Source of the DNA: Candidatus Bathyarchaeota archaeon
GTDB lineage: Archaea > Thermoproteota > Bathyarchaeia > Bathyarchaeales > Bathycorpusculaceae
Reading direction: 5' to 3'
Assembly (NCBI GenBank): GCA_963702095.1
Contig: OY969706.1
Span: 768,001 to 832,000, forward strand
DNA length: 64,000 nucleotides
The notes under the pieces were generated by a model that was not told where the DNA came from, ran no database searches, and saw nothing but the letters and a program-made list of their open reading frames with translations. The translations under genes were made by a program, and so were the position numbers. This document shows, in pieces, positions 1,481 to 51,395 of the stretch. Position 1 is the first letter of the stretch, and each line of letters begins with the position of its first letter.

Positions 1481-1612
1481 TTTGAAGTGTTAAATCGGTT
1501 TCTATTTTTGTGTGGGTGTGGCGGTTTGTGGGGTGCCACAAGAAGGTTTGAGGGGGGGTTGCCTGCATGGCTCCATGTTGAAGCCGCCAGGGTGTGGGTG
1601 TGAAAGCATGTT
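1481..1612 (-). repeat. Dispersed non-coding element family A, copy 1 (internally shortened)
   Basis: Reverse complement contains cttgtggcaccccacaaaccgccacacccacacaaa and catgctttcacacccacac, matching copies at ~12.0k, 21.0k, 40.1k, 51.1k; central hairpin segment missing. Confidence 0.85.
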
Positions 1613-1684
1613 GAATAAACATGCCCTGCACCAAGAAACACTCAGAAAAAAAGAGGCATACCTGCCAAGTTTTAGCCTCTAAAA

Positions 1685-2383
1685 TCAGTAACCAGCTTCG
1701 GCTTGCGAAACAACCCTGCCCTCCTTAAGAAAAAGGGTACGATCTGCCTGATGATACGGAAACACTCCGTGGCTGACAACAACCACCGCAACTTTGGATT
1801 TACGGTTAAGCTCCACCAGTTTAGCCGTGATTTCCTTACCCGCCATCGGATCCATCTCGCCAGTGGGTTCATCCGCCAAAATCAAAACAGGATCCCTCAC
1901 AAGCGCCCTTGCAATGGCTACTTTTTGCTGTTGCCCCACGCTGAGTTCAAGCGGCAACATATTGGCTTTTTCTGCAAGCCCAAAAGACTCCAGCAGCGCC
2001 AAAGCTTTCTCAGCCATTTCTTTTTTGGAAAGCGATGAGTGAATCAGTGCTGACTCCACATTTTCAACAACTGTAAGCGAAGGCAGGAGGTTGAAGGTTT
2101 GGAAGATAAAACCGATTTTTTCTCGCCGCAAATCAGCTAATTCGCTGTTGGAGTAGTTTTTGAGGCTTTTTCCGTTGAAAAGAACTTCGCCGCAGGTGGG
2201 ATGGTCTAAAGCGCCGATGAGGTTGAGCAACGTGGTTTTTCCACTGCCCGAAGACCCCACGACCGCCAAAAATTCGCCTGAGCCAACTTCAAGGGTGACT
2301 GCGTTAAGAGCTTTTACTGAGGACCCGTTTTTTCTGGGGAAGGTTTTGGTTAGGTCAAGTGTTTGGATAAGCGGCGAGGACAT
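1685..2383 (-). CDS. ABC transporter ATPase, LolD/MacB type
   Basis: Walker A GSSGSGKT, LSVGQQQ signature, ILADEPTG; probable start MSSPLIQ at 2383. Confidence 0.9.
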   Translation of the reverse strand: MSSPLIQTLDLTKTFPRKNGSSVKALNAVTLEVGSGEFLAVVGSSGSGKTTLLNLIGALDHPTCGEVLFNGKSLKNYSNSELADLRREKIGFIFQTFNLLPSLTVVENVESALIHSSLSKKEMAEKALALLESFGLAEKANMLPLELSVGQQQKVAIARALVRDPVLILADEPTGEMDPMAGKEITAKLVELNRKSKVAVVVVSHGVFPYHQADRTLFLKEGRVVSQAEAGY

Positions 2384-2384
2384 T

Positions 2385-3596
2385 TTAGAACCTCCTAAGT
2401 GCTTCGGCAGGCTGTAGTTTAGCTGCGCGCCAAGCGGGAAACACCCCTGCAACTACTCCAGCACAGATTGAAGCTGCAAATCCGAGAAGTAGCACCCAAG
2501 GAGAAATCGCGAGCACCAAATTCGTCAAAGGCAGCAGACCCAACAGGGGAATCAACAGAATAATTACTAGTCCAGCGACTATGCCTATGGCTCCTCCTAC
2601 AGTACCCTGTAGCAAGGATTCGACGAAGACTTGTTTGGTGACGTCGGAGTCTTTCCAGCCTATGGCTTTGAGGACGCCGATTTCTTTGGTGCGCTCAACC
2701 ACGGAGCCAAACTGGGACCTCAAAGAGAACAATGTAATGCAGACAATCAAAATGATCGATATTGCCCATGCACTCTGCTCGTTAATCGCGACGACGCCTC
2801 GGGCGATGAAGCCGCATTGGTAACCGACCAAAGCGCCTGTTTGCCCAGCAAACGATTGCAAAGCATCCAAAGCTGAATTCTGAACAGTGGCGATGTATTG
2901 GGCGTCTCCTGTGGCGGCGATTTCCACGAGCACAACGTTGATGTCGCGGACGGCGAAGTTGTAGAGTTGCCCATAGTGACGTGCAATATCCTGCACAGTT
3001 GGCAGCGGAGCGTAGATGTTGGCTGTGCCCGCGGGTCTGCTGTGTAGCGCTGGGTTTACGATGCCGATTACAGTGAAGTCGTGGTTGAAGGCTGATAAGT
3101 GGTCTTCGACTTTAATGTCAGCTATTTGCGCGTAAATTGAGTCGACCATAACTGAGTCCGAATCATTTTCTGTTAGGTAACGGCCTTCTACCACCTCATT
3201 GGGTGCGACGACGTTGGTGCGGGTGGCTTGGGCGGTGGCGTTTATTCCGCAGATAGTTAGGTTTTCGAGCCTAAACATGAGGCATGGAGCAGCATCTGCA
3301 ACGCCGGGCAACCCGCGGATTGTTTCCACGATGGTGGTGTTGTAGGTGGGTGTGTAGGTGTTTTTGAAGACGGGTCCGACTTCGCCGAATTGGCAGGGGC
3401 AAGTCTGTGAAACGGGAATGTATACTGCGAAGTGTGTGCCTATGCCGTTTAGGGTGCCTTCTGCTACCCAGTTGTAGGCGCCTGCAAGCGTGACCGCCAC
3501 CACCAGAAAAGCTATCGCTATACTGTAGCCAACTATGTTGGCTGCACTGCGCAGTTTTCGGCGTCTAATCTCTTTTAGAGCGTACTGCCTAATCAT
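2385..3596 (-). CDS. ABC transporter permease, FtsX/MacB type
   Basis: ERTKEIGVLKAIGW motif, C-terminal PAWRAAKLQPAEALR, 1+3 TM layout. Confidence 0.9.
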   Translation of the reverse strand: MIRQYALKEIRRRKLRSAANIVGYSIAIAFLVVAVTLAGAYNWVAEGTLNGIGTHFAVYIPVSQTCPCQFGEVGPVFKNTYTPTYNTTIVETIRGLPGVADAAPCLMFRLENLTICGINATAQATRTNVVAPNEVVEGRYLTENDSDSVMVDSIYAQIADIKVEDHLSAFNHDFTVIGIVNPALHSRPAGTANIYAPLPTVQDIARHYGQLYNFAVRDINVVLVEIAATGDAQYIATVQNSALDALQSFAGQTGALVGYQCGFIARGVVAINEQSAWAISIILIVCITLFSLRSQFGSVVERTKEIGVLKAIGWKDSDVTKQVFVESLLQGTVGGAIGIVAGLVIILLIPLLGLLPLTNLVLAISPWVLLLGFAASICAGVVAGVFPAWRAAKLQPAEALRRF

Positions 3597-3624
3597 CGGT
3601 CACCCATCCCCTCATGCATGCAAA

Positions 3625-6876: not shown

Positions 6877-7043
6877 TTACTTTTCACCTGATTCTTTAAG
6901 TTAAGAGTCGTTTTTTAACCTTCTGTTACTGCCCAAAAGCTATCACAAACCAATTTAGAGCTTGCACCATCCAAAAATAGTTGCGAAGTGAAAACTCTTT
7001 TGTAGTTCATTAATGGATTGTTTATTGTGGAAGGTCAGGTTTT

Positions 7044-7745
7044 TTGACGGACAATAACCAAGCGGCATCGATTAGGGTTACCAAAAACGGTCCCTACCTC
7101 GTCATGGGAGGGGTGCCTCTTTTTGAGATGATAATTAAATGCGACGGCAAAGGGAACACGCCCTCAGAATGGTTAGTTGGCAAACGGTTTCCGCTCCTGC
7201 CAAACTATTTGCTCTGCCGATGCGGACACACAAAAAACAAACCATACTGCGACAGTTCGCACCTCGAAATACACTTCGACGGCACAGAAACCTACGGCAA
7301 CCTACTCTTTGAGCAGATGGCAAAAGTAATTGACGGACCACAACTCACCCTAAAAGACGCAGAGATCATCTGTGCTTCCGCCCGGTTCTGTCATCGGGGA
7401 GGCGACATCTGGGATGAAATCCCCAAATCATATAACCCCAAAACCAAACAAAACAGTATCCGAAACACCTGCGACTGCCCCTCAGGCAGACTCGTAGTCA
7501 CCGATAAGGATACGGGCGAAGTGGTTGAGCCATCGCTTGAGAAATCCATCGGTGTAGTGTTGGATCCCGCCATTGGCGTCGATGGTCCGCTTTGGATACG
7601 CGGCGGCGTCCCCGTTTTTTCCGTAGAGGGCAAACCGTATGAAGTGCGCAACCGCATGACGCTGTGCCGATGCGGGAAATCCGTGATTAAGCCTTTTTGT
7701 GATAGTAGTCATTATCCTGAAGAGTATCAAGAGGTGAAACATTGA
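7044..7745 (+). CDS. CDGSH iron-sulfur domain protein (two CDGSH-type domains flanking a Cys-containing ferredoxin-like domain)
   Basis: CRCGHTKNKPYCDSSH and CRCGKSVIKPFCDSSH; central CASARFC and CDCPSG. Confidence 0.88.
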   Translation: MTDNNQAASIRVTKNGPYLVMGGVPLFEMIIKCDGKGNTPSEWLVGKRFPLLPNYLLCRCGHTKNKPYCDSSHLEIHFDGTETYGNLLFEQMAKVIDGPQLTLKDAEIICASARFCHRGGDIWDEIPKSYNPKTKQNSIRNTCDCPSGRLVVTDKDTGEVVEPSLEKSIGVVLDPAIGVDGPLWIRGGVPVFSVEGKPYEVRNRMTLCRCGKSVIKPFCDSSHYPEEYQEVKH

Positions 7746-11949: not shown

Positions 11950-12150
11950 GCTAAAAAAACAGTCGATACATGCGTTCACACACACATCCCGACCGCCCCT
12001 GCATAGAGCCATGTTGGGCGTGTGGAGAAAAAAGCCTCTGCCACACCGAAACAAGCGCCAAAAAACGTTTCAACCCCAAAAAGCAATTGCCATCCTTTGC
12101 AGTCTTGTGGCACCCCGCAAACCGCCACACCCACATAAAGACAAAAAAAT
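11950..12150 (+). repeat. Dispersed element family A, copy 2
   Basis: atacatgcgttcacacacacatcccgaccgcccctgcat...gtgtggagaaaaaagcctctgccacaccgaaaca...cttgtggcaccccgcaaaccgccacacccacataaag. Confidence 0.92.
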
Positions 12151-17680: not shown

Positions 17681-17840
17681 ATTTCCCTTATTTATGGGCG
17701 AACAACATTTTTTTTATTGTTAGATGAAAATCGAGTGCTCTCTGCTCATCTTCTTCTTGCGGGCTTGGTTGGCGGCTGCTTTTTTTGTTCTGCAACGGGT
17801 TTGTGTTGCTTGCTGGTTGTGTAGCAAACCTCGGCAGGAC
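17681..17840. repeat. Dispersed element family B, copy 1
   Basis: tattgttagatgaaaa...tgctcatcttcttcttgcgggcttggttggcggctg...gctggttgtgtagcaaacctc aligns with 59056-59228. Confidence 0.8.
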
Positions 17841-18558: not shown

Positions 18559-20754
<2,196 letters not shown>

Positions 20755-20904: not shown

Positions 20905-21262
20905 TTGAACGGTTAATCGGTTTTTTCTCTTTATGTGGGTGTGGCGTTTTGCGGGGTGCCACAGGACTGTTGTGGGCTGCGTTGTGTTTGGGGGGTGCAA
21001 CAGTTTTTAGCGTCTGTTTCGGTGTGGCGAGATTGTTTTTCTCCACACCCAGTGCATGCTTCCATGCAGGGGCGGTCGGGATGTGTGTGTGAATGCATGT
21101 ATTGTTTGTCTTTTAGGCGTGGCAGTGAACGGCAATGAACAGCGCAATGCAAACGACACCAGCATAGCCCATCCAACAGCAACTTAGCCACCTCTCACAT
21201 CCAAAAAACCAGCCCACGCCCTAGACACTTGCATGTCAAATATTTCAAAGCCAAAAAACAAC
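20905..21262 (-). repeat. Dispersed element family A, copy 3 (long form)
   Basis: 20925-21100 near-identical to reverse complement of 40088-40265; 21100-21262 aligns with 51225-51395. Confidence 0.92.
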
Positions 21263-21275
21263 ACTAAAAAAAGGA

Positions 21276-21593
21276 TTAGGGCGTAAGCGCTTCATTCACC
21301 GCAAAGCTTCCCACAAAAACGTTGCTTCCTTCACCAAAGCCTCGCCCTCCAGACACATCCTGACCGCCAACAATCAGAAGCGTCAGTGAATTCGCCACAC
21401 CAGACACCTTCCTAATACCCAACTGCGTAATATCTCTAATATCATTGATTGAGTCGCCCCTAACTCTTACCAAAATATCATACGCACCATACAAGGGATG
21501 CACTTCTTCAACGCCGTCAAGCTGTTTTAGGCCTTGAAGAACAGTTTTGGGGGTTTGAACATCTGTGTTTACTAAAACTATTGCTGAGACCAT
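21276..21593 (-). CDS. Lrp/AsnC ligand-binding domain protein
   Basis: AIVLVN...GVEEVHPLYGAYDILVRV...IRKVSGV..SLTL; start MVSAIV at 21593. Confidence 0.85.
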   Translation of the reverse strand: MVSAIVLVNTDVQTPKTVLQGLKQLDGVEEVHPLYGAYDILVRVRGDSINDIRDITQLGIRKVSGVANSLTLLIVGGQDVSGGRGFGEGSNVFVGSFAVNEALTP

Positions 21594-21694
21594 ATTCAAA
21601 TTCTCCTTTTCCGCATCTATCCCCCTCCGTATAGTTAAGCCTGTGTTGTTACACACCTGTGCCTACAACCACAAGCACTTGGTAAACGGGTTTT

Positions 21695-22313: not shown

Positions 22314-22628
22314 ATTATGACACTTACAATTAGAGATGACTCTAGAAACTCTTAACTTTTGTTATAAATAGCAAGTTGCCGTCACACCTCTCATTTCCAA
22401 CCAATGCCACCTATCCCTCTATAGGTTATGCAACGAAATTCTTATATGCTCCAAATATGTTGGCGGCAGCCTCATCCCTCTATAAGAAACAACATAGAAC
22501 CACTAATAGAACCAAATATGTTGGTATATTCTTTATTTGAGCAGCTATCGACGCAACTTGAACAACCTATAATAGAAAAAATAAATTTTGCAAAAAATAT
22601 TATGCGCTTGGTTGTATAATTAACAAGC

Positions 22629-23122: not shown

Positions 23123-23124
23123 CG

Positions 23125-30919: not shown

Positions 30920-32449
30920 ATGGTTGAACTCAGAGCACAAGAACAACAACTCCTCTGTGCCATCGACAAACAAGGCGGAGACGCCTCAGTGGAGAAACTG
31001 GTTGAATGCTGCGGATTCACCGACGCCGCCGTCATGCGCTCCGCATTAACCCTGCAGGAAATGGGTCTCTTAACCATACAGGCAGCCACAAAAAACATCA
31101 TTAAACTCACCTCCGAAGGCAAAGGCTACTCCCAAAACGGCTTGCCCGAACGCAACCTAATCCGCGCCGTCGCCGAAATGGGAGGCAAAGCCAACCTCGC
31201 CGAAGCAGCCAAAAAAGCAGAGCTTATGCAGCAGTTTGTTCAAATCGCACAGGGCTGGGTAATCCGCAAGAAATGGGCAACCTACTCCTCAGCAGACAAC
31301 AGCTTACGAATCAACGAAACCCTGCTCCACAACATGAATATCCCTGAAGGCTGCGATGAAACCCTCCTCAAGTACTTGGGCGAAAAAGGCCAAGAGGCGC
31401 TTGACGACTTAAGCGGTGACCTCAAAGACGCGGCAGAACAACTCAAAAAACGCAAACTAGTAACTATTGAACCCAAAACCACCCGCATCCTCAAAATTAC
31501 CAGGGCGGGCAAAGAAGCCGCAGGTCAAGCCGCAACCGCAGTGCCCGAAGTCACCAAACTCACTCCTGAACTCATAATCACGGGCAAATGGCGAGAAATC
31601 AAACTTCAAAAATACAACATCGAAGCCCCCGTCGCCAAAACTTGGCCAGGCAAAAAACATCCCTACCTAAGCTTCCTCGACGAAGTCCGCGCTAAACTGG
31701 TGCAGTTGGGCTTCCAAGAAATGACTGGCACCGCTGTGGAAACCAGCTTCTTTAACTTCGATTCTCTCTACGTGCCACAGGATCACCCCGCACGTGAACC
31801 CTCAGACATTTACTACATCCAAGAACCCAAGTACGGCGACGTAGAAAGCCACAGATGCGCAGTTGAGCGGGTGAAGGAGACGCATGAGGACGGCGACGAA
31901 ACAGGCAGCACCGGCTGGGGTTACCGCTACTCTTTCGACGCTGCGAGGCGGTTGCTTCTGCGTGGACACGGCACATGCCTCAGCGCCCGAACCCTAGAAG
32001 CAGGCAAATATGTGGTGCCCAGTCGCCACTTCAGCATCGCCCGAGTGTACCGCCCTGAAATAACCGACCGCACGCATCTGAGCGAATTCAACCAGGTGGA
32101 AGGCATCATACTCGACGAAAAACTAACCTTAAAAGACCTCTTAGGCGTCTTGGGCAAGTTTGCGCTCGAGATTGCGGGCGCCGACAAAGTCCGCTTCAAA
32201 CCCGATTATTTCCCCTTCACCGAACCCAGCGTCGAACTCAGCGCCTACAAGGAGGGCTATGGCTGGATTGAATTCGGCGGTTCAGGCATATTCCGCCCTG
32301 AAGTCACCGTGCCACTCGGCGTCAAAGCGCCCGTCATCGCATGGGGCTTGGGTGTGGATCGGTTGTTTATGATGCGCTCGGGAATTAGTGATATCCGCAT
32401 GATTTTTAGTCAGGACCTTGATTGGCTGCGCAAAAAACAGGTGACCTAA
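30920..32449 (+). CDS. pheS: Phenylalanine-tRNA ligase alpha subunit (archaeal long form)
   Basis: NFDSLYVPQDHPAR, YFPFTEPS, AWGLGVDRL; start MVELRAQ at 30920. Confidence 0.96.
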   Translation: MVELRAQEQQLLCAIDKQGGDASVEKLVECCGFTDAAVMRSALTLQEMGLLTIQAATKNIIKLTSEGKGYSQNGLPERNLIRAVAEMGGKANLAEAAKKAELMQQFVQIAQGWVIRKKWATYSSADNSLRINETLLHNMNIPEGCDETLLKYLGEKGQEALDDLSGDLKDAAEQLKKRKLVTIEPKTTRILKITRAGKEAAGQAATAVPEVTKLTPELIITGKWREIKLQKYNIEAPVAKTWPGKKHPYLSFLDEVRAKLVQLGFQEMTGTAVETSFFNFDSLYVPQDHPAREPSDIYYIQEPKYGDVESHRCAVERVKETHEDGDETGSTGWGYRYSFDAARRLLLRGHGTCLSARTLEAGKYVVPSRHFSIARVYRPEITDRTHLSEFNQVEGIILDEKLTLKDLLGVLGKFALEIAGADKVRFKPDYFPFTEPSVELSAYKEGYGWIEFGGSGIFRPEVTVPLGVKAPVIAWGLGVDRLFMMRSGISDIRMIFSQDLDWLRKKQVT

Positions 32450-32450
32450 G

Positions 32451-34160
32451 ATGCCGACGATAGATGTTGACTACGCTGAACTGGAACGTTTACTCCATGT
32501 GTGCTTGAATGGTGACATGGAGAAACTCGACGATATTTTGGCTTATGTTAAAGCTGAAGTGAAAGGCTACGACCAAAAAGAAGGCTCCCTTAGCATTGAG
32601 ATGAAGGATACTGCGCGCTCTGACCTCTGGAGTGTGGAGGGCTTAGCAAGGGCGTTGCAAGGCTACCTCGGAGGGGAAATGGGCCTCAAAGCCTACTCCG
32701 CCGGCGAATCCGCGGTCGACGTCTACGTGGACGCCAACCTCTGCCCTATCCGACCCTACATCTGCTGCAGCGTCGTCAAAGACATCCGCCTCTGTGACGA
32801 AGTCATCAAAGGCATCATGCACCTACAAGACAAACTTGACCAGACACAGGGCAGGAGCCGCCAGAAAACCAGCATCGGCATCTACAGCCTCGACTTAATC
32901 AAGCCGCCCATCCAGTACAAAGCCGTCAAACCCCAAGATGTCGCCTTTGTGCCGTTGGGCTTCACAGAAAACATGGCGCTCGACGAAATCCTCGAAAAAC
33001 ACCCCAAAGGCCAAGAATACGGCCACATAGTCAAACGCAACACACTCTACCCGATGCTGTTTGACAGCGAAGGCAAAGTGCTCTCGTTCCCCCCCATCAT
33101 CAACAGCAGCGACTTGGGCAAAATCACCGAGGACAGCCGCAACCTTCTCGTCGAAGTCACAGGTACACTGCACAAAACCGTGCTCAACACCTTGAACTTG
33201 GTAACTTTGGCGTTGATTGACCGTGGAGGCAAAGCCTACAGCGCAACCATTCATTATCCCAAAGGCGCCGAATACACAGAGGACATGGTGGTGACGCCTG
33301 ATTTTAGTAATCGCCGCTGGGAACTCAGTGTGGAAGAGACTAATCGCCTGTTGGGCTTAAAGTTGACTGCGGAAGAGATCGCCGATTTACTGGGCGTCGC
33401 GGGGTTAGGCGTGGAGAAAGTCGCCGCTGACAAACTTACCGTGCTGGTGCCCTGCTACCGCATAGACGTCATGCACCAAGTGGACATCATCGAGGACGTC
33501 GCCATCGCTTACGGTTACAACAACATAACGCCGCTGTGGCGTGAGCTGCCCACCACTGGTAAAGCCAAAGCCGACGAGCATCTTATAGGCATCGCAAGGG
33601 ACCTAATGGTCGGGTTAGGCTACCAAGAAGTCCTCAACACCACCCTAACCAACCCCGAAACGCTCTTCAAAAAAATGAACATTCCATCGAACCCCGTTAT
33701 CGAGTTATCCAACCCCAAAGTCAACACCATGACATGCCTGCGCAACTGGCTCCTGCCCGGACTCATTGAGTTCCTTAGCATCAACCAATCGGTGGAGTTT
33801 CCCCAGAGAATCTTTGAACTCGGCAAAGTTACCTTACCCGACGACACAGCGGAGACCAAGACACGGGACGAAAACTGGCTCTCAGCCGTAACTGCGCACC
33901 CAAACGCCAACTTTAGCGAAATCAAATCTGCCCTGGACTCGTTTATGGCGAATTTCGGCGTCGAGTTCCAAATCCAAGAGGCGGCGCATCCGAGTTTTAT
34001 CGAGGGCAGAGTGGGCAAAATCATAGTTGACGGCAAAGAAGTCGGCGTGGTCGGTGAAATCACTCCATTGGTGCTTGAAGCGTGGAAGCTTGAGAATCCA
34101 GCGGCGGCGTTTGAACTTAACTTTCAAACCTTAGCCAACCAAAAAACCTGTCCACAGTAA
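32451..34160 (+). CDS. pheT: Phenylalanine-tRNA ligase beta subunit
   Basis: MPTIDV, LQDKL, SFPPIINS, DIIEDVAIAYGY, SFIEGRVG. Confidence 0.96.
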   Translation: MPTIDVDYAELERLLHVCLNGDMEKLDDILAYVKAEVKGYDQKEGSLSIEMKDTARSDLWSVEGLARALQGYLGGEMGLKAYSAGESAVDVYVDANLCPIRPYICCSVVKDIRLCDEVIKGIMHLQDKLDQTQGRSRQKTSIGIYSLDLIKPPIQYKAVKPQDVAFVPLGFTENMALDEILEKHPKGQEYGHIVKRNTLYPMLFDSEGKVLSFPPIINSSDLGKITEDSRNLLVEVTGTLHKTVLNTLNLVTLALIDRGGKAYSATIHYPKGAEYTEDMVVTPDFSNRRWELSVEETNRLLGLKLTAEEIADLLGVAGLGVEKVAADKLTVLVPCYRIDVMHQVDIIEDVAIAYGYNNITPLWRELPTTGKAKADEHLIGIARDLMVGLGYQEVLNTTLTNPETLFKKMNIPSNPVIELSNPKVNTMTCLRNWLLPGLIEFLSINQSVEFPQRIFELGKVTLPDDTAETKTRDENWLSAVTAHPNANFSEIKSALDSFMANFGVEFQIQEAAHPSFIEGRVGKIIVDGKEVGVVGEITPLVLEAWKLENPAAAFELNFQTLANQKTCPQ

Positions 34161-34325
34161 ACCATAGGAATCAGTTTTTTTCTATAGTTGTTGTTGACGA
34201 AAACCGCCTATACACAACAACAACCAGCGGGCTTTGCAGCAAATTATGTTTTAGCATCAGCGTTAAATTTAAGCTCCAATCCAGTTGTGCAATTAGCCAC
34301 ATCAAAACAACAAAACCTGAGGAAG

Positions 34326-35123
34326 TTAAAACCATGACAGTGTCCCGTTTTTCCTCGCTTTTCTTAGGCACCAAGCGTACACGCCATACCCAAACGGCAC
34401 AATAATGGCGCACATCAACGCCAAAATCAGTATGTAGGGCAGCACCATCTGTATGGTCCAACCTGTTAGCATCAAGCGTATGCTGGTGAAGAAGTAGTAT
34501 TGGGGCAGCACGTAGCTTATGGCTTGAAGTATCGGCGGCATAACCGTTGGCGGAAACAAAACGTTGCCAAACAGTGTGGTGGCTATGGTTATTAGTGCGG
34601 TGACGGGGTCGCCCTGTTTGGTTAAGATGAGGATGCCTGCGCCGATCATGCTAAAACCCAAAAAGGTGCCGATGCCCAGCGCCAAAACAATCAGGGTGCC
34701 CAAGACGTTGATGCTTAAGTCTACGCCGAAAAATATCACGCCAATAAGCAAATACACCACGACGACGGCGGTGCTCCAGATGAACCCCCAAAGCGAACTG
34801 CCCACAATAAAGGTGCGTAGCCCAGTCGGCGAAACCAGCACTTCTTCTAGCGCCCAGGGGTTGATTGTTTTCTGCACCAGCGTCAACGCCTGCGTGAGGT
34901 AACTGTTGAACGCTAAGCCGATAATGAGGTAGGTGGTAAAGTTCATGTTATACATTTCTTGGACGCTTTGGCTAACAGCACTGTTACCTAAGAACGCGAA
35001 GGAGAGAGCGCCGAAAAGGGCGGTGGCGACCAAGATGACGATGTTGGTTTTGTAGGTGCTGAAGCTGATGATGTCGCGTTTCATGAAGTAAAAAATTTTT
35101 TCCAGTTCATCCCACGCCGTCAC
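34326..35123 (-). CDS. ABC-2 type permease
   Basis: LEEVLVSP, six TMs, RKARKNGTL tail. Confidence 0.85.
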   Translation of the reverse strand: MTAWDELEKIFYFMKRDIISFSTYKTNIVILVATALFGALSFAFLGNSAVSQSVQEMYNMNFTTYLIIGLAFNSYLTQALTLVQKTINPWALEEVLVSPTGLRTFIVGSSLWGFIWSTAVVVVYLLIGVIFFGVDLSINVLGTLIVLALGIGTFLGFSMIGAGILILTKQGDPVTALITIATTLFGNVLFPPTVMPPILQAISYVLPQYYFFTSIRLMLTGWTIQMVLPYILILALMCAIIVPFGYGVYAWCLRKARKNGTLSWF

Positions 35124-36142
35124 GCCTCAGTCCTCCCAGTCAACTCGATAAACGCATCTTCTAAGGTGGGTTCTTCTCGGCGGTAATTCACCAGTTTAAT
35201 GCCTTCCAAATAGAGGAAACTGAAGACAGAGGGCACCGCGTCTACGCCTTTGAGTTCCACACAGAACCCCCTCTGCCCCACGCCCGTGTTGTACTGGTCG
35301 TTTTCTGAGGCGTTGACGACCGCTGGCAAACCGTAGAGTTTTTCGATCTGCGCTGGACTGATGGATTCGACGACTATGTAGATGCGTTCTTTCTCTTTAA
35401 TCATGGCTCGGATCGCGTCGGGGGTGTCACAGGCGATAAGGCGGCACTTTCTTAAGATGCCGATTTGGTCGCATATCTGCGCTGCCTCCTCAATGTAGTG
35501 GGTGGTGTATAACACGGTTTTGCCTGTTTCCCGCACGGTTTGCTGCACGAAATCCCGGATGTTACGCGACGAGATCACGTCTAACCCAACCGTGGGTTCG
35601 TCTAAGAGCAGGATAGGCGGATCAGGAAGCAGCGTTCGCGCCAACGCTAACTTTCGTTTCATGCCGCCCGAGTAGCGTTGGTACAAGTCGTAGACGCTGT
35701 TTTCTAATCCGACGAGCCGCAGCACCTCTAAGATGCGTTCTGGGCGTTTCTGGCGGGGAACGTTGTAGATGGAGGCGTAGAATTCGAGGTTGCGGTAGCC
35801 GTTTAGCCTCCAAAAAAACCCGCGTTCCCCAACACTAAAAAGCGTGCCCAAGGACCGTTTAACCTGCATCGGCTCTTTGAGGATGTCATAGCCGTTGATT
35901 AATGCGGTGCCGCTGTCGGGGGGCAGCAGGGTGCAGAGCATCTTGACGAGGGTGGTTTTGCCTGCTCCGTTGGGTCCTAGGAGCCCAAAAAGCTGCCCTT
36001 TTTTGATGGTTAAGGTGAGGTTGTTTACGGCGTTGAGGGTGACAGTTTTTCGGCGGCTAAGCAGTTTGCTGTGTTCGGCGGGCATTTTGGTTTTGAATGT
36101 TTTTGTTAGGTTGATTGTTTTGATGGCATGTTCGTTCTGCAA
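35120..36142 (-). CDS. ABC-2 type ATPase
   Basis: GPNGAGKTT, YSGGMKR, LDEPT, PTLEDAF. Confidence 0.92.
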   Translation of the reverse strand: MQNEHAIKTINLTKTFKTKMPAEHSKLLSRRKTVTLNAVNNLTLTIKKGQLFGLLGPNGAGKTTLVKMLCTLLPPDSGTALINGYDILKEPMQVKRSLGTLFSVGERGFFWRLNGYRNLEFYASIYNVPRQKRPERILEVLRLVGLENSVYDLYQRYSGGMKRKLALARTLLPDPPILLLDEPTVGLDVISSRNIRDFVQQTVRETGKTVLYTTHYIEEAAQICDQIGILRKCRLIACDTPDAIRAMIKEKERIYIVVESISPAQIEKLYGLPAVVNASENDQYNTGVGQRGFCVELKGVDAVPSVFSFLYLEGIKLVNYRREEPTLEDAFIELTGRTEA

Positions 36143-36266
36143 CCGCTAAACCTCTGATTTTTAAGGGAAAGAATGCACAACAACCATATTTTGCTGTGCT
36201 GAATGAGCATTTTAGGCGTTTTTTTGCAAAAAAAGCCTCAAATACGCAGCCGTACAACCACAGGGT

Positions 36267-36935
36267 ATGCTGCCAAAAGTGGTCGTGTATAATTCAGTTA
36301 GCGTTGACGGCGCAATTAAGGATTTCGACGTAGACATCGCATTGCACTACGAGGTGTTAGGCAGGTTAGGCGCTGACGCGTTGCTTGTGGGTTCCCAAAC
36401 CGCCAAATCCGGCATCGAGTTGTTCCTCAAGGAGGTGCCGCCTGAAGAAGAAAGCGACTATCAAAAACCCTCAACCAGAGCCGGTGACGGACGACCAATA
36501 TGGGTTATTCCCGACAGTCGAGGCATCCTCCAAGGTCTGCTGCATGTTCACCGCAAATCAGGCTACGCCAAAGACATAGTTGTTTTAGTTTCCAAGTCCA
36601 CATCCAAACAGTATCTCGATTACCTAGCTAAGAGGCACTATGATTACATAGTTGCTGGAAACGACCACGTCGATTACCGAGTGGCGCTTGAAGAACTACA
36701 TAGGCGCTTCGGCATAGAAAAAGTGGTAACCGACAGCGGCGGCGTCTTGGTCGGCGTGTTGCTTGAGCAGGGTTTGGTGGATGAGTTGCAGCTGCTTGTT
36801 GCCCCTGAATTGGTAGGCAAAAAAGCGGAGAACCTATTTCGAGGCTTAGGGCGCAGTGTGAAGCTGGAGTTTGTCAGTTGTGACGTCATCAAGGGGCATG
36901 TGCTGTTGAGCTATCGCGTTTCTAAGCGGATGTAG
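36267..36935 (+). CDS. RibD C-terminal/dihydrofolate reductase-fold reductase
   Basis: SVSVDG, DALLVGSQT, DSRG, SGGVL, LVDELQLLVAP. Confidence 0.85.
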   Translation: MLPKVVVYNSVSVDGAIKDFDVDIALHYEVLGRLGADALLVGSQTAKSGIELFLKEVPPEEESDYQKPSTRAGDGRPIWVIPDSRGILQGLLHVHRKSGYAKDIVVLVSKSTSKQYLDYLAKRHYDYIVAGNDHVDYRVALEELHRRFGIEKVVTDSGGVLVGVLLEQGLVDELQLLVAPELVGKKAENLFRGLGRSVKLEFVSCDVIKGHVLLSYRVSKRM

Positions 36936-36970
36936 CTAAGAGTAATGGTATGTGCTGATTGGTCTCTGCG

Positions 36971-37849
36971 TTATTGAACTGGGAGCTTGGCGGAGTCTAT
37001 TTCTGTCATGATTGAGGCGCCATTCCTCCTGACAAGTCGCATCGAAGCAAACACGTTTATGCCTAAAGACACCCAAACCGCCAACAACGTAGGCATTATG
37101 ACATCAGTAATTTGTATACCATAAACAATGCGGTAGGGTGAACTAAAAAGCACACTGAACAGTATCAGCGTAAGCAACATGGTGACTACAAAATGTGCAA
37201 GCACAACAACACGGTACTTCTTCATAACGCTCACGAGACTAAGCAAAGCGTGGTGGGTTTGGCTGTCGCCGACTGGTTGGCGCTGGAGTTTCTTGTAGAA
37301 TCCATGAGAGTAGCCCATATAACTCCAAAGTGAGGTTGTGTCTTTTGAGGCGACCGCCTGCATAAAATAGCGGAATTGGTCGTCTGAGCTGGGGTTTGGC
37401 TGCACCCAATACTTGTAGCCGTAAACAAACCCATAAACCAACACCTCATTTGCCCTCTCGTACCTGCTGAAACAGATACCGCTTACCGCCAAATCAGCAA
37501 TCATAAACGGAAAGAACATGAATAACCCAAACGGCGCATACTCTGCAGAACCCAAAAACGCCAAAACCAAAAGAAACGGCACCATAAACAAAGCCAAACC
37601 CGCCAAAGGCACCTCCCAAACAAACGCTTCAGACTGCTTGGAAAGTTTTGAGAGAACCACTCTGAGTTCTAACACCGCCAACAAGGCTCCTGCGGCGACT
37701 CCGAAAAGTAAGTAGCCAAAGCGGGTTAGGTTTAGCCAGTCCAAGTTGACAGTTGCTAAGTACATGAAAACTGCAATGGGAATGGACACTATGATGGCGT
37801 AGACTAGGCGGGTTTGCCCTATGGGAACGCCTAACTTACCAAGCGACAA
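36971..37849 (-). CDS. Multi-pass membrane protein
   Basis: ~6 hydrophobic segments; no family recognised. Confidence 0.7.
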   Translation of the reverse strand: MSLGKLGVPIGQTRLVYAIIVSIPIAVFMYLATVNLDWLNLTRFGYLLFGVAAGALLAVLELRVVLSKLSKQSEAFVWEVPLAGLALFMVPFLLVLAFLGSAEYAPFGLFMFFPFMIADLAVSGICFSRYERANEVLVYGFVYGYKYWVQPNPSSDDQFRYFMQAVASKDTTSLWSYMGYSHGFYKKLQRQPVGDSQTHHALLSLVSVMKKYRVVVLAHFVVTMLLTLILFSVLFSSPYRIVYGIQITDVIMPTLLAVWVSLGINVFASMRLVRRNGASIMTEIDSAKLPVQ

Positions 37850-37906
37850 TTACTCTTTCAACCAACCAATTACAACGTTGGTTTAAATTAAAAAAAGTTA
37901 TGTATG

Positions 37907-39163
37907 TTAGGCGATTACGATTTTCTTGTCTAAAGCAGCGGCGATGTTGCGTTCGATGGTGTGTTTGAGGTTGCCTATTTTATCCACGGTTTCTTTGTAG
38001 CTGTTGGCCTTGACGGTTTCGTGGGTTTCCACGCTGGTCTTACGAATCTTTAACTGGTCAAGCTGCTCTTGGTGCTGGGTCAAATTCTGCTTTATCTCAT
38101 CCATCTTCGAGGAAGCCAGCAACTGATTGCGGTTAGTAGCCATCTCGGTGCACCGGATCTGCAGGTTAGCAAGCGAATTGTTACGTAGTATTTCGTTCAC
38201 TGTCTGTTCAGCTTTGCGTTGCTTATCGGGCTTGAGTTTAAGCGTGTCCTTAGCCATCATGCCCTCGAGCTTCTCCAAAATCCCCCTCAGTTCAGGGTAA
38301 CCCGGCTGCTCAGACACCAACGCGTCAAAGGGCTGGTCTAGGTACTGGTTGATTTTTTTGAGTTCGTCGGGTGTGATGCCGCCTCCGCCGCCTGAAGTGG
38401 CAAGTGCCTGCATCTTGATGAAGGGTTTCTGGAGGTGCCGCAATGTGTTTTTGAGTTCGTTGCTTAGGTTTTCTATTTCGGCGTTGATGAGGTTGAGTTT
38501 GTCTATGGGTCCTTTGCTTTTTAAGTCGCTGATTTTCTGTTCTAAATCAGAGATTTCCTGCTCAAGCGGTATGCGCTCGTTTTGTATGTTGGTTTTATCC
38601 TGTTCGATGATGGAGAGTTGCTGCTCTATACCTTGCAACTCATTTAGTTGCAAAAGCGCTTCTTCAAGCGTTTTTGTTTTAACATACTCTTTTGTGACGT
38701 AATCGTTTAGGGCGTTGTAGGCTTGTCTGGCTTTTTCGTAGGTCTGCAAGAATCTTCGCCGGTCCATAATGAAGAAGGGGGAGATGCGGGGGAACCAGTT
38801 TTTGATGTCTATGTCGGTTACGTAGAGGACTTTTTGGATTTCTTGCACATAACGGTTCATGCTGTCATATGAGACTTGTTCGGGCGAAGTAAGTTTTCTG
38901 AATCGGTCGAGGAATAACCGAGTGAGTTTGTTGAGGGCTCGGGCGCGGTTGTAGAGTTTCATGTTTCTTTTTTCGATTTCTTTGCCGCTTAAATCGAAGA
39001 GTTGTTTGCTGATGTCTGTTAGGGCTTGGATTTGGAGGTTCATGTTGTCGCGGAGTGTTTTGGCTTGGGCATGGACTGGGGTGAGGACTGTGCTGGTTTG
39101 TGTTTCTAGCCAATGTTTTGCTTCTTCTGAGGATGAGAATTGGGTGGTTGCTTCAGTCAACAA
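37907..39163 (-). CDS. Long coiled-coil hypothetical protein
   Basis: 418 aa, heptad-rich E/K/Q/L composition. Confidence 0.75.
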   Translation of the reverse strand: MLTEATTQFSSSEEAKHWLETQTSTVLTPVHAQAKTLRDNMNLQIQALTDISKQLFDLSGKEIEKRNMKLYNRARALNKLTRLFLDRFRKLTSPEQVSYDSMNRYVQEIQKVLYVTDIDIKNWFPRISPFFIMDRRRFLQTYEKARQAYNALNDYVTKEYVKTKTLEEALLQLNELQGIEQQLSIIEQDKTNIQNERIPLEQEISDLEQKISDLKSKGPIDKLNLINAEIENLSNELKNTLRHLQKPFIKMQALATSGGGGGITPDELKKINQYLDQPFDALVSEQPGYPELRGILEKLEGMMAKDTLKLKPDKQRKAEQTVNEILRNNSLANLQIRCTEMATNRNQLLASSKMDEIKQNLTQHQEQLDQLKIRKTSVETHETVKANSYKETVDKIGNLKHTIERNIAAALDKKIVIA

Positions 39164-39297
39164 GGTTCACGCATCTTAATGTTAGTGTTTGGTTGTTTAT
39201 CAATTTTAGCCATAATTCAATCCAAATTGGCACTCTTTTTTAGGTAGCTACTCTTAAATAGCTAACCGTGCCCATAGAAAACAAGCAGGCAACAGAA

Positions 39298-39894
39298 ATG
39301 AACACAAAAACAAGCACACGAACACTCGCCCTTATCATAATCTTCGTCGCACTAGCAGTCGCGCTAAACGTCTATGGACCGAAAATTCCTTTCCCGCTCG
39401 CCCCCTTCCTCTTCTTTCAGCTGTGGGAAATTCCCATAGTCATAGCATTCCTCGCCATAGGCGTAAAACCTGGTGTCGCCGTAGCAGTCATTAACTCAAT
39501 AGTTCTAGTGTTTGTTTTCCAGGGGGAACTGCCAACTGGTCCCTTTTATAATCTCATAGCAGTCCTATCGATGTTCTTAGGCATATACATCCCATATAAA
39601 ATAGCAACCCTACGCTGTAGAACTGAAAGTCTAACCGAATATCTTAGACACCACAAAGTAATAATCACTATAGCAGCAACAGCCTCAGGCATGGCTACAC
39701 GCATACTCATAACAACGGTCGTTAACTACTTCGCCCTACAGCAGCCCTATCCAATCGGCTTTGGGCTACCCCAAATCGATGCGTTACTCTTCCTACCCGC
39801 AGGCGCAGTCTTTAATGCCATAGTTGCACTATACACTATTCCCTTAGCATTCGCTATAACGGTCGCTGTCACTTCAAGAGTAAAAATACAGTAA
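39298..39894 (+). CDS. ECF transporter S-component-like membrane protein
   Basis: ALAVAL...KIPFPLAPFLFFQLWEIP, six TMs, C-terminal FNAIVALYTIP. Confidence 0.75.
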   Translation: MNTKTSTRTLALIIIFVALAVALNVYGPKIPFPLAPFLFFQLWEIPIVIAFLAIGVKPGVAVAVINSIVLVFVFQGELPTGPFYNLIAVLSMFLGIYIPYKIATLRCRTESLTEYLRHHKVIITIAATASGMATRILITTVVNYFALQQPYPIGFGLPQIDALLFLPAGAVFNAIVALYTIPLAFAITVAVTSRVKIQ

Positions 39895-40026
39895 CAAGAA
39901 ATACTCAGCTACTATATGCCCATCACATGCGTGTTCAACGCTACACTTGCGCTTTACACTATTCCTCTGGGTTACATTATTGCTGTGGTGATAAAGCGGA
40001 ACCTAAGACACGCCAACATGGTATAA
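39895..40026 (+). pseudogene. Orphan C-terminal fragment of an ECF S-component paralog
   Basis: QEILSYYMPITCVFNATLALYTIPLGYIIAVVIKRNL vs preceding gene's LFLPAGAVFNAIVALYTIPLAFAITVAVTSRV. Confidence 0.75.
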
Positions 40027-40087
40027 CGGCAGATCAATTTTCTGTTGACCGCAATCTTTGTTGGAGCATATGGAATATTTCCAATTC

Positions 40088-40270
40088 ATGCATGCATTCA
40101 CACGCACATCGCGCCTGCCTCTGCATGGAAGCATGCACTGGGTGTGGAGAAAAACAATCTCGCCACACCGAAACAGACGCTAAAACTGTTGCACCCCCAA
40201 AACACAACGCAGCCCACAACAGTCCTGTGGCACCCCGCAAACCGCCACACCCACATAAAGAGACAAAAAT
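40088..40270 (+). repeat. Dispersed element family A, copy 4
   Basis: Near-identical to reverse complement of 20925-21100; hairpins tgcatg/catgca, ggtgtgg/ccacacc, tgtggc/gccaca. Confidence 0.95.
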
Positions 40271-40310
40271 CTTTCAACACAAATTGAACTCAAAATAAAA
40301 AAAGAAAAAA

Positions 40311-41270
40311 TTAGAAGCCCAAGGCTTGCGCAAGCACCTTAGGATTAATCTGCCCTGCCTTGAAGGTTCTGCCCGTCTTAGCATTGTTAATCATGAGCAG
40401 CGCTGGAGCAAATAGGCCACCGTCTATCTTGTAGAAGTCTTTGCCTGCGTCGAGGAAGATTTGCAAAAACGGTTTGCCGTAGTCTTTCGAGTTAACCGAA
40501 GGAGCATCCTTGACTAATTGTTGCAGTTTAGCTTCATCATCGTAGTCAACAGTCAGATACACGGTTCCACCGTAGAGGATAACGTCGTTGGTTCTTGCCA
40601 TCGCCACCTCGAAATCTGGACCCACAGGCGGAATCGGCGCATAACCCATCGCGTAACGGATAACTTTAGGGTCCAATCCCAAAGTGTGCAGTTTGTGAAT
40701 GCCGACTTCGACAACGCGGCCTGCAACCTGCGTTAACCCTGCAACACTGGCGGTTGGAGCCACAACCACAATCAAGTTTGAAGCGGCGACGTTGCTGTTT
40801 TTGCAGACTTTCTCAACTAAGACGTCCGTGGGCAGCACGTTGCTCTCAAGAGTGATTACGGCTTTGTCAGATTGGTCGGTGTAACCGATTTCCTCGTAGA
40901 TTTCTTTGGGTTTTAACGCGATTGCTCGCACTGGGCCTGAGCCGATGGCGATGTTGTCGCCGTCTTTTATGCGCCAACCCGCAAACTGGCTGCCCAGCAT
41001 TGCGATGGCGGGGTAATCGGATGTGATGGTTACTGAGGGGAAAGTGAGGTCGCCGTAGTTTTTGAAGCCTAATTCTGCTTTGCCTGCGCCGCCTAAACAG
41101 AGTTCAGTTAAGATTTTGCCTGCTTCAAAGCCGCCTGATGCCTTGACGCCTGCATCGATGATGGTGGCTCCAGCAGACGATTTAGTGACCACTACACCGT
41201 AAGATTTAGGGTTCTCAAGTAATTTCTGAGCTTTTTCCCAAGCCAATTGGTTTACGCTTATGTTACCCAT
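40311..41270 (-). CDS. mch: Methenyltetrahydromethanopterin cyclohydrolase
   Basis: ISVN, CLGG, LGSQFAGW, GSGPVRA, TNDVILYGG, DFYKID..LFAPA. Confidence 0.96.
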   Translation of the reverse strand: MGNISVNQLAWEKAQKLLENPKSYGVVVTKSSAGATIIDAGVKASGGFEAGKILTELCLGGAGKAELGFKNYGDLTFPSVTITSDYPAIAMLGSQFAGWRIKDGDNIAIGSGPVRAIALKPKEIYEEIGYTDQSDKAVITLESNVLPTDVLVEKVCKNSNVAASNLIVVVAPTASVAGLTQVAGRVVEVGIHKLHTLGLDPKVIRYAMGYAPIPPVGPDFEVAMARTNDVILYGGTVYLTVDYDDEAKLQQLVKDAPSVNSKDYGKPFLQIFLDAGKDFYKIDGGLFAPALLMINNAKTGRTFKAGQINPKVLAQALGF

Positions 41271-49990: not shown

Positions 49991-50340
49991 AACTCAGTGG
50001 GTATATCGCCCGCCTTACCCCCTTTTTAACAGTAAATCACGTTTTTGTTCTCTCTCTTTGAGTGGATTTGCCAGTATATACCGAAGCTGTCTTCAAAATA
50101 ATTCAGGAGAGTTCGGTTTTTCACAAAAAGTTTCAATTCTTATGCCAGTCAGAACCAAGCTAAGCCCCATAATCATGCTTTCGTTTGCTAAATTAGCCGT
50201 AACTTGTTACCATTAATGCTCAATTTTGCATTGTAATTCTATGTTTTACAAAGATTGATTTGAAACCTGTGACATATTCTTATCGTTGAAATATAGGTTA
50301 AAACACTGGTTGACAGTGGAACTTCAAAGAGTGAAACAGT

Positions 50341-50589
50341 ATGTCAAACGATTCTGCTCCAGAAGATTGGTCCAACCGCCGAACTGCAACACTAGACTTT
50401 ATAATTAAAAGTTTAAAGGAACACGAGCAAAATCTAGATAAGCTGATCGGTAAACTGATGGAACTCAAGCAACAGATAGATGATACAAAAGAGGTCTATA
50501 GTCGCTTCGAAGAAATAGAAGTCAGCATCGGCAATTTGGAAAGCGAAATTAAACGCTTAAGCGGCTACATCTCGGCTTCAAAAAAATAG
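50341..50589 (+). CDS. Small coiled-coil protein
   Basis: LDFIIKSLKEHEQNLDKLIGKL heptads. Confidence 0.7.
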   Translation: MSNDSAPEDWSNRRTATLDFIIKSLKEHEQNLDKLIGKLMELKQQIDDTKEVYSRFEEIEVSIGNLESEIKRLSGYISASKK

Positions 50590-50690
50590 CGCATTGTGGT
50601 GCACGCCTCTTAAGATGCATTTTTTGAGTGTGTTTGTTCTTGGGATATATTCATGCATATTACATATTTTTATAAATATGTTAGAGTATT

Positions 50691-51008
50691 TTGCTTTGTG
50701 AAATAACAGTTAAGATAAAAGAAAGGAAGTGGGATATCACGATAGACCTCAAAGAGAATAAGAAAATCAGTCAACTGTATGAACGGACAGGGTCTAGGCA
50801 TCCACAGAAAAACGGGTTTGCAATTTGCCCAGAATGTGGACAAGAACTTCTTATCACACCGACACTCTTAGAAATGAGTCAAGTGATCGAAAACCACGTT
50901 GACTTACATAAGACTGTTTACCAATCCGACTCTTCCCTCGAGGTCACTAAACATCTACGGATTCGGCTCTCTTTGATGTGGCAGGTTTTAGATCAAAAAG
51001 GAATATAG
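50691..51008 (+). CDS. Small C2H2-like zinc-binding protein (start uncertain)
   Basis: CPECG...IENHVDLH. Confidence 0.6.
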   Translation: MLCEITVKIKERKWDITIDLKENKKISQLYERTGSRHPQKNGFAICPECGQELLITPTLLEMSQVIENHVDLHKTVYQSDSSLEVTKHLRIRLSLMWQVLDQKGI

Positions 51009-51049
51009 TGATTGACCAGTTCTCGCGGGCCAAACGGTACTTTTCTGTT

Positions 51050-51395
51050 CTCTCTCTTTGTGTGGGTATGGCCGTTTACGGGGCACCACAAGAAAGGTTG
51101 TGTGAGTGATTGTTTTTTTGGGGAAGCATTGTTTTTTGGCGTCTGTTTTGGTGTGGGAAGTGCGTTTTCCACCACACAACCAACATCCCATGCAGAAACC
51201 ACTCCCGTGTGAATGTGAAACCACGTATCGTTTGCTTTCTTAGCGACCGACAGAGAACAGCAAAAAACAGCACAACACAGATCAGGCACCAACAACCCCC
51301 ACACAAACCCAGCCCCACCCACAAAACACAACCCCCATCCAGAAAACCCCACAAAACAAACACAAATGTAATTCTGATAAAAGTCAAAAAACAAA
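51050..51395 (-). repeat. Dispersed element family A, copy 5 (long, diverged)
   Basis: Reverse complement has gtgtgg...ccacaccaaaacagacgccaaaaa and cttgtggtgccccgtaaacggccatacccacacaaag; AC-rich flank aligns with copy 3 flank. Confidence 0.88.

Follow-up and report, generated by a model that had tools for sequence, protein, structure and literature searches.

Intergenic repeats of a Bathyarchaeia genome as candidate DNA-level box arrays renewed by recombination between copies

The repeats that we call family A belong to one larger system of modules (C, A, B, D and E) that makes up 2.1% of this archaeal genome (G000, 90% complete), and we tentatively regard them as arrays of short boxes, acting at the level of DNA, that are renewed and spread by ectopic recombination. 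The evidence comes from tracts shared between copies, from the loss of gene order at the sites where modules lie, and from a related species (G007) used as the main comparison.

Five family A copies had been claimed in the window, that is, the whole stretch of 64,000 nucleotides under analysis, and their places and strands are all borne out. The copies and the modules around them are as follows.

1423..1505, minus strand: A-rich tail and module D behind c1; D is a purine-rich 3' extension common to A and B copies
1506..1611, minus strand: c1, family A core of 106 nt; internal deletion, with H2 and linker lost
11968..12140, plus strand: c2, complete A core; ragged junctions, no duplication; site empty in G007, G005 and G014
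17707..17832, minus strand: family B copy; sister module with a ~130-nt core and an A-rich linker in common with A
20929..21100, minus strand: c3, complete A core between a katG-type peroxidase and an Lrp/AsnC-domain gene
21101..21311, minus strand: module C before c3; G+T-rich 5' extension
22381..22519, minus strand: module E copy; E has 22 matches in the genome and elsewhere joins C, D, A and B head-to-tail
34172..34301, minus strand: family B copy, same family as 17707..17832
40090..40260, plus strand: c4, complete A core ahead of the mch 3' end
51056..51226, minus strand: c5, complete A core, more diverged; synteny break relative to G007
51227..51381, minus strand: module C before c5, behind a ParE-family toxin-antitoxin pair
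59050..59253, minus strand: family B copy with flanking extensions

The surplus length of c3 and c5 is the separate, G+T-rich module C, and the ORF to the left of c5 (50691-51008) is a weak call with no Pfam match. A reverse-complement piece was spotted by eye before some B copies. Three hairpins had been described as common to all five copies; as written, H1 (tgcatg-gaag-catgca) and H2 (ggtgtgg-N15-ccacacc) are exact in c3 and c4 only, and H3 (tgtggc-N12-gccaca) is exact in c1 to c4 and varies in c5. The near-identity of c3 and c4 holds overall (95%) but is uneven, at 83% over core columns 1-35 and 99% in the rest. Because c3 resembles c2 in columns 1-35 (97% alike) and c4 in the remainder, it is, judged by its sequence, a mosaic of the two types. 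The likeness of c3 and c4 had been taken to mean that copies spread at different times, which we consider a misreading; it is better explained if gene conversion has recently passed between these two inverted copies, which lie 19 kb from each other, an explanation preferred because G007 also holds an A copy behind the left flank of c4.

Beyond the window, a profile built on the five copies finds 114 matches in the genome, and the family A profile finds 119 against none on the reversed genome. Complete cores of ~175 bp number 96, so the predicted abundance is real, with ~100 non-coding copies in G000. Among 101 sampled genomes of one Bathyarchaeia genus, family A is present in 51, and over the genus as a whole the number of copies per genome runs between 0 and about 100. 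The core consists of seven pentamer boxes, five CCACA/TCACA and two TGTGG, plus A-tracts; spacers between boxes are fixed in length with free filler sequence, and species and subfamilies agree in which columns are conserved and in how these are spaced. Paralogues have a median pairwise identity of ~72%, a low figure for homologous recombination of the ordinary kind. Subfamilies that differ in their boxes occur side by side, several to a genome, and a 25-copy subfamily carries direct and inverted CCCAT/ATGGG in place of CCACA/TGTGG. This switch, which may have been a single historical event, includes boxes outside any stem, so that unpaired and paired boxes change together. GC/TA skews reach +0.6/+0.5 in module C, stand at -0.27/-0.36 in the A core and flip abruptly between them, and adjacent modules lie on the same strand, head-to-tail, in 31 of 31 cases. 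We dismissed D as a terminal inverted repeat around B, since D-profile matches run forward in all but one cluster. Helical phasing of conservation was likewise unconvincing (the strongest period was 20.5 nt in A and in B lay at the 30-nt limit of the scan, under a null that ignores autocorrelation).

As first stated, family A has no conserved ORF. A candidate His/Cys micro-protein family was rejected on equal conservation at the three codon positions (1.28/1.29/1.24 bits); the synonymous share was 0.30 versus 0.25 expected, and an ATG with an open frame occurs in 33 of 90 G000 copies and 8 of 18 G007 rows. The siting at gene 3' ends is true of all five window copies, three of which do lie between convergent ORFs, but amounts to only a twofold bias genome-wide. 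Of 109 family A placements in G000, 31 are convergent, 50 tandem and 28 divergent; under stricter gene calls, 24 of 81 are convergent and 16 divergent, and among 2034 spacers free of modules 341 are convergent (odds 2.1 and p 0.006 for the convergent excess). A mutational footprint in flanking genes (G+T | A+C skew from recurring break) looked strong at first and was gone against element-free controls, where one of 20 bins gave p 0.03 in the wrong direction.

Modules coincide with places where gene order has changed. In a 380-kb sample of G007, synteny is broken at 15 of 22 A- or B-bearing junctions (those scorable for the 42 elements in that sample, with 20 kb pieces scored separately), against 8 of 75 element-free spacers of at least 100 nt (p 3e-7); the A-bearing junctions break synteny in six of six cases. 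The flanks of c1, itself a break, lie in G007 on different contigs beside other modules, and in front of the right flank of c4 that genome has an A>D>B array. At one break (L201) the polarity is opposite. Presence and absence at orthologous sites, which the preliminary description had proposed to compare, is confirmed by the empty c2 site in three genomes. Clean empty/filled sites are few (c2 and three B sites in G007) and their junctions ragged; a flanking duplication of ~38 nt at one of these B sites may be a long target duplication, and two cross-genome alignments (L045, L090) are too diverged or masked to define ends. A G000 module lies at the junction in 22 of 68 other-genome loci with a mapped 3' flank, over a background of 10.7%, and polarity is kept in 21 of these 22. 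What occupies a site is less constant, with single sites holding different subfamilies in different species. At 17 orthologous junctions, two of which (L087, L102) rest on doubtful flank mapping, G007 copies are no closer to the G000 copy, at variable columns, than paralogues drawn at random; 12 tail-side orthologue pairs score 0.47/0.48/0.51 versus 0.47/0.46/0.45 for random paralogues, with ranks of 3-97 of 100. Between the two genomes, flanking genes are 66% identical at four-fold sites (2866/4327) and element-free spacers 83% identical (median, n 57).

The copies within G000 bear marks of exchange as well. Exact shared runs of at least 50 nt occur in 15 of 4005 A pairs and in none after column permutation; shared tracts measure 50-176 bp, and their ends fall within cores and within flanking DNA. 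Across A, B1 and B2 there are 22 exact runs, 15 of them within 60 kb, a class that makes up about 4% of all pairs. Near tract-sharing pairs are inverted in 13 of 15 cases, although they are few and not independent, three copies forming one trio, and distant pairs are mostly direct (6/7). Consecutive copies more than 300 nt apart show a mild inverted bias (A 11/14 under 5 kb, p 0.057; B none). Linkage between 70 biallelic columns of family A falls from an r2 of 0.16 at 1-2 nt to 0.03 at 6-10 nt and 0.016 beyond 50 nt, the unlinked value being about 0.014, and is thus near baseline past ~10 bp. NucS is present in G000, and MutS was looked for and not found; in mycobacteria, NucS repairs patches of ~5-6 bp (PMC11551744). 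Three DNA runs of one sample over 20500-40499 gave short contigs of mixed relatives only, none of them with a usable joint.

According to the reading that we tentatively favour, family A would be a polar double-stranded DNA site with boxes and A-tracts at fixed spacing. A transposase would not copy it as a unit; copies would instead pair in register and recombine. Non-crossover events evidently replace 50-440 bp in one copy with the sequence of another. Crossovers between inverted copies would flip the intervening DNA and join new flanks, and inversion of this kind may be the cause of the observed association of modules with breakpoints. The arrays and swapped occupants that we observe may likewise arise by crossovers at linkers common to A, B, C, D and E, building head-to-tail arrays and exchanging what a site holds. 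New sites might form when break repair copies a template with core and ragged flanks, as the four usable empty/filled junctions suggest. RadA-type host recombination is a candidate for the activity, which together with NucS short-patch repair could yield the fine mosaic. Because boxes and spacing are kept and subfamily boxes have changed in concert, we suspect that a putative sequence-specific protein binds the boxes and brings copies together. No box-binding protein or recombinase was identified in this analysis, and no conversion or inversion in progress was seen. Tyrosine integrases (PF00589, 7 matches in G000) are found in 94 of the 101 genus genomes, whether these contain A or not, and are missing from two A-bearing genomes that are ~90% complete. 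Any dispersed repeat, an old transposon relic included, would convert and mark breakpoints, so the data are silent on the first origin of the copies. A bolder version, in which a putative protein with CCACA- or CCCAT-reading variants synapses hundreds of polar sites into a genome-wide recombination network, exchanging slot cassettes, inverting segments between neighbours and seeding new slots without any known transposon family, strikes us as unlikely in its entirety.

Alternatively, the copies may be an orphan non-autonomous element which some lost, extrachromosomal or unrecognised transposase, HUH enzyme or reverse transcriptase has spread as a unit; the boxes would then be the enzyme's binding sites, the subfamilies would mirror autonomous partners, and recombination would be a later by-product. 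We consider this rather doubtful, although it would suit the range of copy number across the genus, the coexistence of subfamilies, the existence of both filled and empty sites, the incompleteness of G000, and a twofold convergent-spacer bias like that reported for pneumococcal repeats (PMC3049150). RNA-derived copies cut short at the 5' end would also be consistent with the A-rich tail, the near-constant 3' end of the core and the gradation of 5' lengths. Against such an element, there is neither a terminal inverted repeat (longest match between 30-nt consensus ends, 4 nt) nor a target duplication (the longest flank match averages 5.8 nt, and 5.7 nt on permutation, n 89; none at c2), as had been noted from the start, and it is hard to square with ragged junctions and with sites that persist from species to species. 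Profile searches of G000 found no RVT_1, Y1_Tnp (PF01797), TnpB, IS110, DDE_Tnp_1 or resolvase, and with Y1_Tnp and TnpB absent, the mobilisation of HUH/IS200-IS605 or REP type once suggested is not supported. Among 11 high-copy genomes TnpA occurs in one, as a broken gene; 40 A-bearing genomes include five with resolvase and two with reverse transcriptase (RVT_1), and TnpB-domain matches in them are weak only (E 3e-5 or worse). A SINE-like element likewise meets the scarcity of RVT_1 (none in G000, two of the 40 genomes) and the lack of target duplication. A look for copies flanking tnpA or reverse transcriptase genes had been proposed; no A end was found in 30 TnpA loci of the genus and no A match in reverse transcriptase or resolvase loci; viral contigs held 0 exact family A motif matches. 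A link to other DDE-like transposases of G000 was dropped, no shared A ends being seen. A link to integrases in low-copy genomes was also set aside: four loci hold integrase pieces, which neighbouring tRNA genes explain best.

A host-beneficial site, such as a nucleoid element, a loop anchor or a transcription insulator, to which a host protein binds and which selection keeps at particular spacers, is in our judgement an unlikely account, under which conversion and inversion would follow from the bridging of bound copies. It would explain why columns, spacing and sites persist across species, and 12 of 36 loci in low-copy genomes have a tRNA gene no more than 400 nt away (default ARAGORN calls only, relaxed calls giving many false tRNAs), with one tRNA-Thr/tRNA-Leu spacer accounting for four of the 12. 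However, G000 has no element at that spacer or at the most persistent site, no polarity of family A to genes or genome position was found, clean 10.5-bp phasing is lacking, and 50 of the 101 genus genomes searched gave no match, a count that may include weak subfamilies escaping the search. Least probable, in our view, is a multi-copy structured RNA or a terminator/3'-UTR element acting through H1-H3. The c4 copy does fold better than shuffles (z -3.7 as DNA, -3.2 and -2.9 as RNA of the two strands), 92% of H1-H3 cells are paired, and the last stem of the CCCAT subfamily stays complementary. Of 500 shuffles, however, 124 do at least as well on the paired share and 45 on the covariation score, leaving no significant covariation. 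In H2 and H3 of 90 copies, 3 double changes stand against 70 single ones, and wobble pairs show no strand preference (30 versus 20 by strand, with 20 mismatches on both). Unpaired boxes switch along with paired ones, orientation to genes is near random, and the Rfam search, in keeping with the initial failure to recognise a named family, gave no match. One lncRNA entry appeared over an A copy at E 0.4, far below its gathering score.

About 2% of G000 is one interlocking repeat system, and most scored junctions bearing modules are synteny breaks relative to G007. If our recombination reading is correct, the system lies behind much of the change in gene order in this archaeal genus, which is widespread and largely uncultured and in whose high-copy members the insertion-sequence families looked for were lacking. 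It would be an archaeal case of the NIME/BIME puzzle of who spreads and keeps such repeats, and its natural subfamilies with switched boxes offer a handle for a binding-protein hunt that is absent from the bacterial cases. Short-read assemblies of these archaea may break at module sites.

Known systems share some of these features. REP/BIME-RAYT repeats (PMC2817692) also have more than 100 extragenic copies, palindromic parts and composite arrays. A REP, however, is a short GT(A/G)G-headed palindrome, whereas the family A unit is ~175 bp and the GTGG in its TGTGG boxes appears as part of a stem arm rather than as a head before it; BIME units alternate in orientation, in contrast to the uniform strand seen here, and the Y1 transposase is absent from G000 and not linked in relatives. 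Prokaryotic MITEs (PMC10969869) are similarly multicopy, non-coding, 50-500 bp long and variably present between relatives, but here ends are ragged, without terminal inverted repeat, target duplication or a cognate transposase in the families searched. Pneumococcal BOX and SPRITE (PMC3049150) are modular and enriched between convergent genes; their sequence is unrelated, and breakpoint association, occupant swapping and concerted box change set family A apart. GRINS (PMC8256042) combine gene conversion with correlated GC and TA skews above 0.15 that flip abruptly, as they do here, but are >500 bp, >80% alike and recode proteins, compared with ~175-400 bp, ~72% and intergenic. Inversion of DNA flanked by 104-bp homologies is within the reach of an archaeal tyrosine integrase (PMC5495485), and in Thermococcus Int-pTN3 scrambles chromosomes by inversion between short inverted homologies, with conversion, much as we envisage; its substrates are unrelated paralogous-gene pairs, whereas here one dedicated repeat system has no enzyme tied to it. 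The family A system is perhaps best read, by analogy, as working like the neisserial NIME arrays of dRS3 and RS (PMC1797815). Family A is archaeal, strictly head-to-tail and mostly of single cores, not long arrays, with a polar consensus, no 20-bp inverted dRS3-type units flanking spacers and, in G000, no IS110-family enzyme. Nevertheless, both are lineage-restricted, modular intergenic repeats of patterned base composition, both form syntenic arrays whose content turns over, and for NIME, as here, the repeats have been proposed to be binding sites for a recombinase.

Family A, a non-coding repeat of about 175 bp, is real. The five window copies (c1 to c5) in the preliminary description are all present and correctly placed, and a profile built from them found 114 matches in a whole-genome search of the source genome (G000; a single 2.94-Mb contig, C1, 90% complete, of which positions 768001-832000 form the window). 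A refined profile gave 119 matches versus none on the reversed genome, and a longer one gave 127 (96 complete cores, up to 40 of them carrying a 5' extension, 13 extension-only, 13 3'-part-only and 5 other); the genome-wide abundance expected earlier was borne out. Exact motif matches in sequence records (19 loci) carried titles of Bathyarchaeia or uncultured archaea. A sequence-only model matched 51 of 101 genus genomes, in 11 of which (the high-copy genomes) at least 22 of 25 scored candidates were positive; in an order-wide sample it matched 8 of 121 genomes, strongly in a single further genus of the taxonomic family and only at E ~1e-4 in two other families. The form carried by low-copy genomes is diverged, with length and plan unchanged.

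Of 90 copies, 79 have a core of 174-176 nt, and spacer lengths are fixed. Its A+C-rich strand carries conserved pentamers, or boxes (CCACA/TCACA at 9, 15, 74, 158 and 164; TGTGG at 54 and 139); an A-rich tail, A-tracts and CATG motifs are also present. Of 125 occurrences of TGTGG-N14/15-CCACA in G000, just 5 lie outside modules. Self-comparison of G000 identified sister modules of A.

Sister modules of family A in G000
Module B: 181 matches; two subfamilies; an A-rich linker common to A and B
Module C: G+T-rich; upstream of the core
Module D: purine-rich; mostly downstream
Module E: 22 matches

Modules A-E jointly occupy 61.5 kb (2.1% of G000) and form head-to-tail arrays: neighbouring pairs share a strand in 31 of 31 cases, in varying order (C>A>D, A>D>B, B>C>A, C>E>D>A). 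The boxes also change in concert, one further subfamily (25 copies aligned) having CCCAT/ATGGG at box positions whether paired or unpaired; it is found together with A in some genomes, and a pattern search found no copy in G000. Other non-coding repeats were seen on C1:

630805-630988 and 765877-766048, outside the window: examples of repeat F, a 29-member structured repeat 3' of genes from a 36-member surface-protein family; four members immediately precede long A copies and share their orientation
403225, 488668, 675408, 2347486, 2491463: a small five-copy family
1314315, 1315529, 1708233, 1842932: a small four-copy family

Copies of A convert one another. Their median pairwise identity is 72%, and exact identity over runs of 50-176 nt is seen in 15 of 4005 pairs, versus none after permutation. 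Among long-run pairs of A and B, 15 of 22 lie within 60 kb; 13 of these 15 are inverted (the pairs are not fully independent), and 6 of the 7 distant pairs are direct. Shared tracts are up to ~440 bp long, with their ends falling within cores or in flanking DNA, and linkage between A columns is near baseline past ~10 nt. Turnover extends to orthologous copies: in G007, a relative with genes 80-90% alike to those of G000, 28 rows were examined and yielded 17 orthologous junctions (two pairs on doubtful mapping), whose copies are no closer than random paralogues. Four-fold sites are 66% alike between the two genomes, and element-free spacers 83% (lenient gaps).

The modules are also associated with breakpoints. 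A 380-kb sample of G007, made up of pieces from six long contigs and containing 42 A or B matches, gave 22 scorable module-bearing junctions. Synteny was broken at 15 of them, versus 8 of 75 element-free spacers of at least 100 nt; a G000 module stood on a facing flank at 14 of the 15, with the same polarity in 13. In the window, c1, c3, c4 and c5 are synteny breaks relative to G007, which lacks the element at c3. Comparison with orthologous sites, proposed earlier, showed c2 to be empty in three relatives. Empty/filled junctions are ragged, or have target DNA replaced, or in one case show a ~38-nt duplication: at 6958-7290 of a G007 locus, a B copy sits between two overlapping genes, and a diverged duplication of their overlap, single in G000, borders it on both sides. 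Occupants are exchanged as well. Loci examined from other genomes numbered 92, counting related genomes and at least one duplicate. The 3' flank could be mapped for 68 of them, and for 22 of these G000 carries a module at the corresponding junction (background 10.7%), with matching polarity in 21. At one site, the genome G048 has one subfamily, several further genomes have another, and G000 has no element. Two window neighbours deserve mention:

51406-51907, minus strand: a toxin of the ParE family and its DUF2683 partner, lying upstream of c5
39268-40090, plus strand: ORF stopping at 39894, with similarity to G007 continuing up to the element, possibly a frameshift or assembly error; many surface-protein genes elsewhere in G000 are likewise split

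We tentatively favour, at slightly under an even chance, the reading that A consists of DNA-level box arrays renewed and spread by ectopic recombination. Crossover between copies would produce inversions, repair-templated insertion may give rise to new sites, and NucS patching and a putative box-binding protein could contribute; NucS is present in G000, and a search there for MutS gave no match. That A acts instead as an RNA appears improbable: the hairpins of the preliminary description are indeed complementary (92% of cells), but covariation did not exceed shuffled controls, single stem changes are tolerated on either strand, and Rfam, whose search had been suggested, returned no match. A host-beneficial site is unlikely. 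In four species (L125, L127, L129, L134), the spacer that separates tRNA-Thr from tRNA-Leu retains an A-type element, which ends 63-82 nt before tRNA-Leu; G000 has none in that spacer; A or B lies within 400 nt of 17 of 50 G000 tRNA calls, versus 19% of protein genes, and the diverged form of low-copy genomes lies at most 400 nt from a tRNA gene at 12 of 36 loci. The proposed placement at gene 3' ends survives as a twofold enrichment in convergent spacers genome-wide, and orientation to genes is near random (gene calls from a simple script rather than a standard caller).

An orphan non-autonomous element is a possible reading to which we give about one chance in four. As described earlier, G000 copies show no terminal inverted repeat or target site duplication, nor any protein-coding signal in the core. 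The suggested link to tnpA, tnpB or reverse transcriptase found no support: RVT_1, Y1_Tnp, TnpB, IS110, DDE_Tnp_1 and resolvase had no match in G000 (90% complete); TnpA occurs in 33 of 101 genus genomes and in 1 of 11 high-copy ones, where it is broken; and resolvase (5) and reverse transcriptase (2) loci among 40 A-bearing genomes lack A ends. G000 does carry DDE-like genes, putatively IS6-like, as well as tyrosine integrases located next to tRNA genes; A flanks none of these:

C1 1195022-1195930, 1161825-1162658, 1962832-1963668: DDE-like transposase genes, 34-36% alike, with no repeat modules at their ends; remnants also occur
C1 213073-234388, 560022-561272, 2936168-2937346: zinc-ribbon and tyrosine-integrase genes by tRNA genes or the contig end

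A ~21-kb island is bounded by a tRNA-Leu 3' repeat. Four-fold sites in G000 are strongly C-over-G on the sense strand (skew ~-0.4 to -0.5 near gene 5' ends, fading to ~-0.1 over the last 100 nt). Along C1, GC skew varies very little, not exceeding 0.023 per 150 kb and dipping slightly below zero over the initial 750 kb; a chromosome that is much inverted or has several origins would be expected to look like this. An apparent flank skew, considered as a sign of recurring breaks, failed its control.

A listing-level literature search (few subscription papers) found no description of family A, and the word "repeat" is absent from the main text of PMC11697101; supplements of Bathyarchaeia genome papers could affect its novelty. 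For the box-array reading, sources of comparison are Thermococcus inversion by Int-pTN3 (PMC5495485) and NucS patch repair (PMC11551744). The A system departs from MITEs (PMC10969869) in a defining test, and shares some features with BIMEs (PMC2817692) and GRINS (PMC8256042), yet departs from each in a defining test; it also has features in common with BOX elements (PMC3049150). NIME arrays (PMC1797815), despite failure of a defining test, are closest to it in working.
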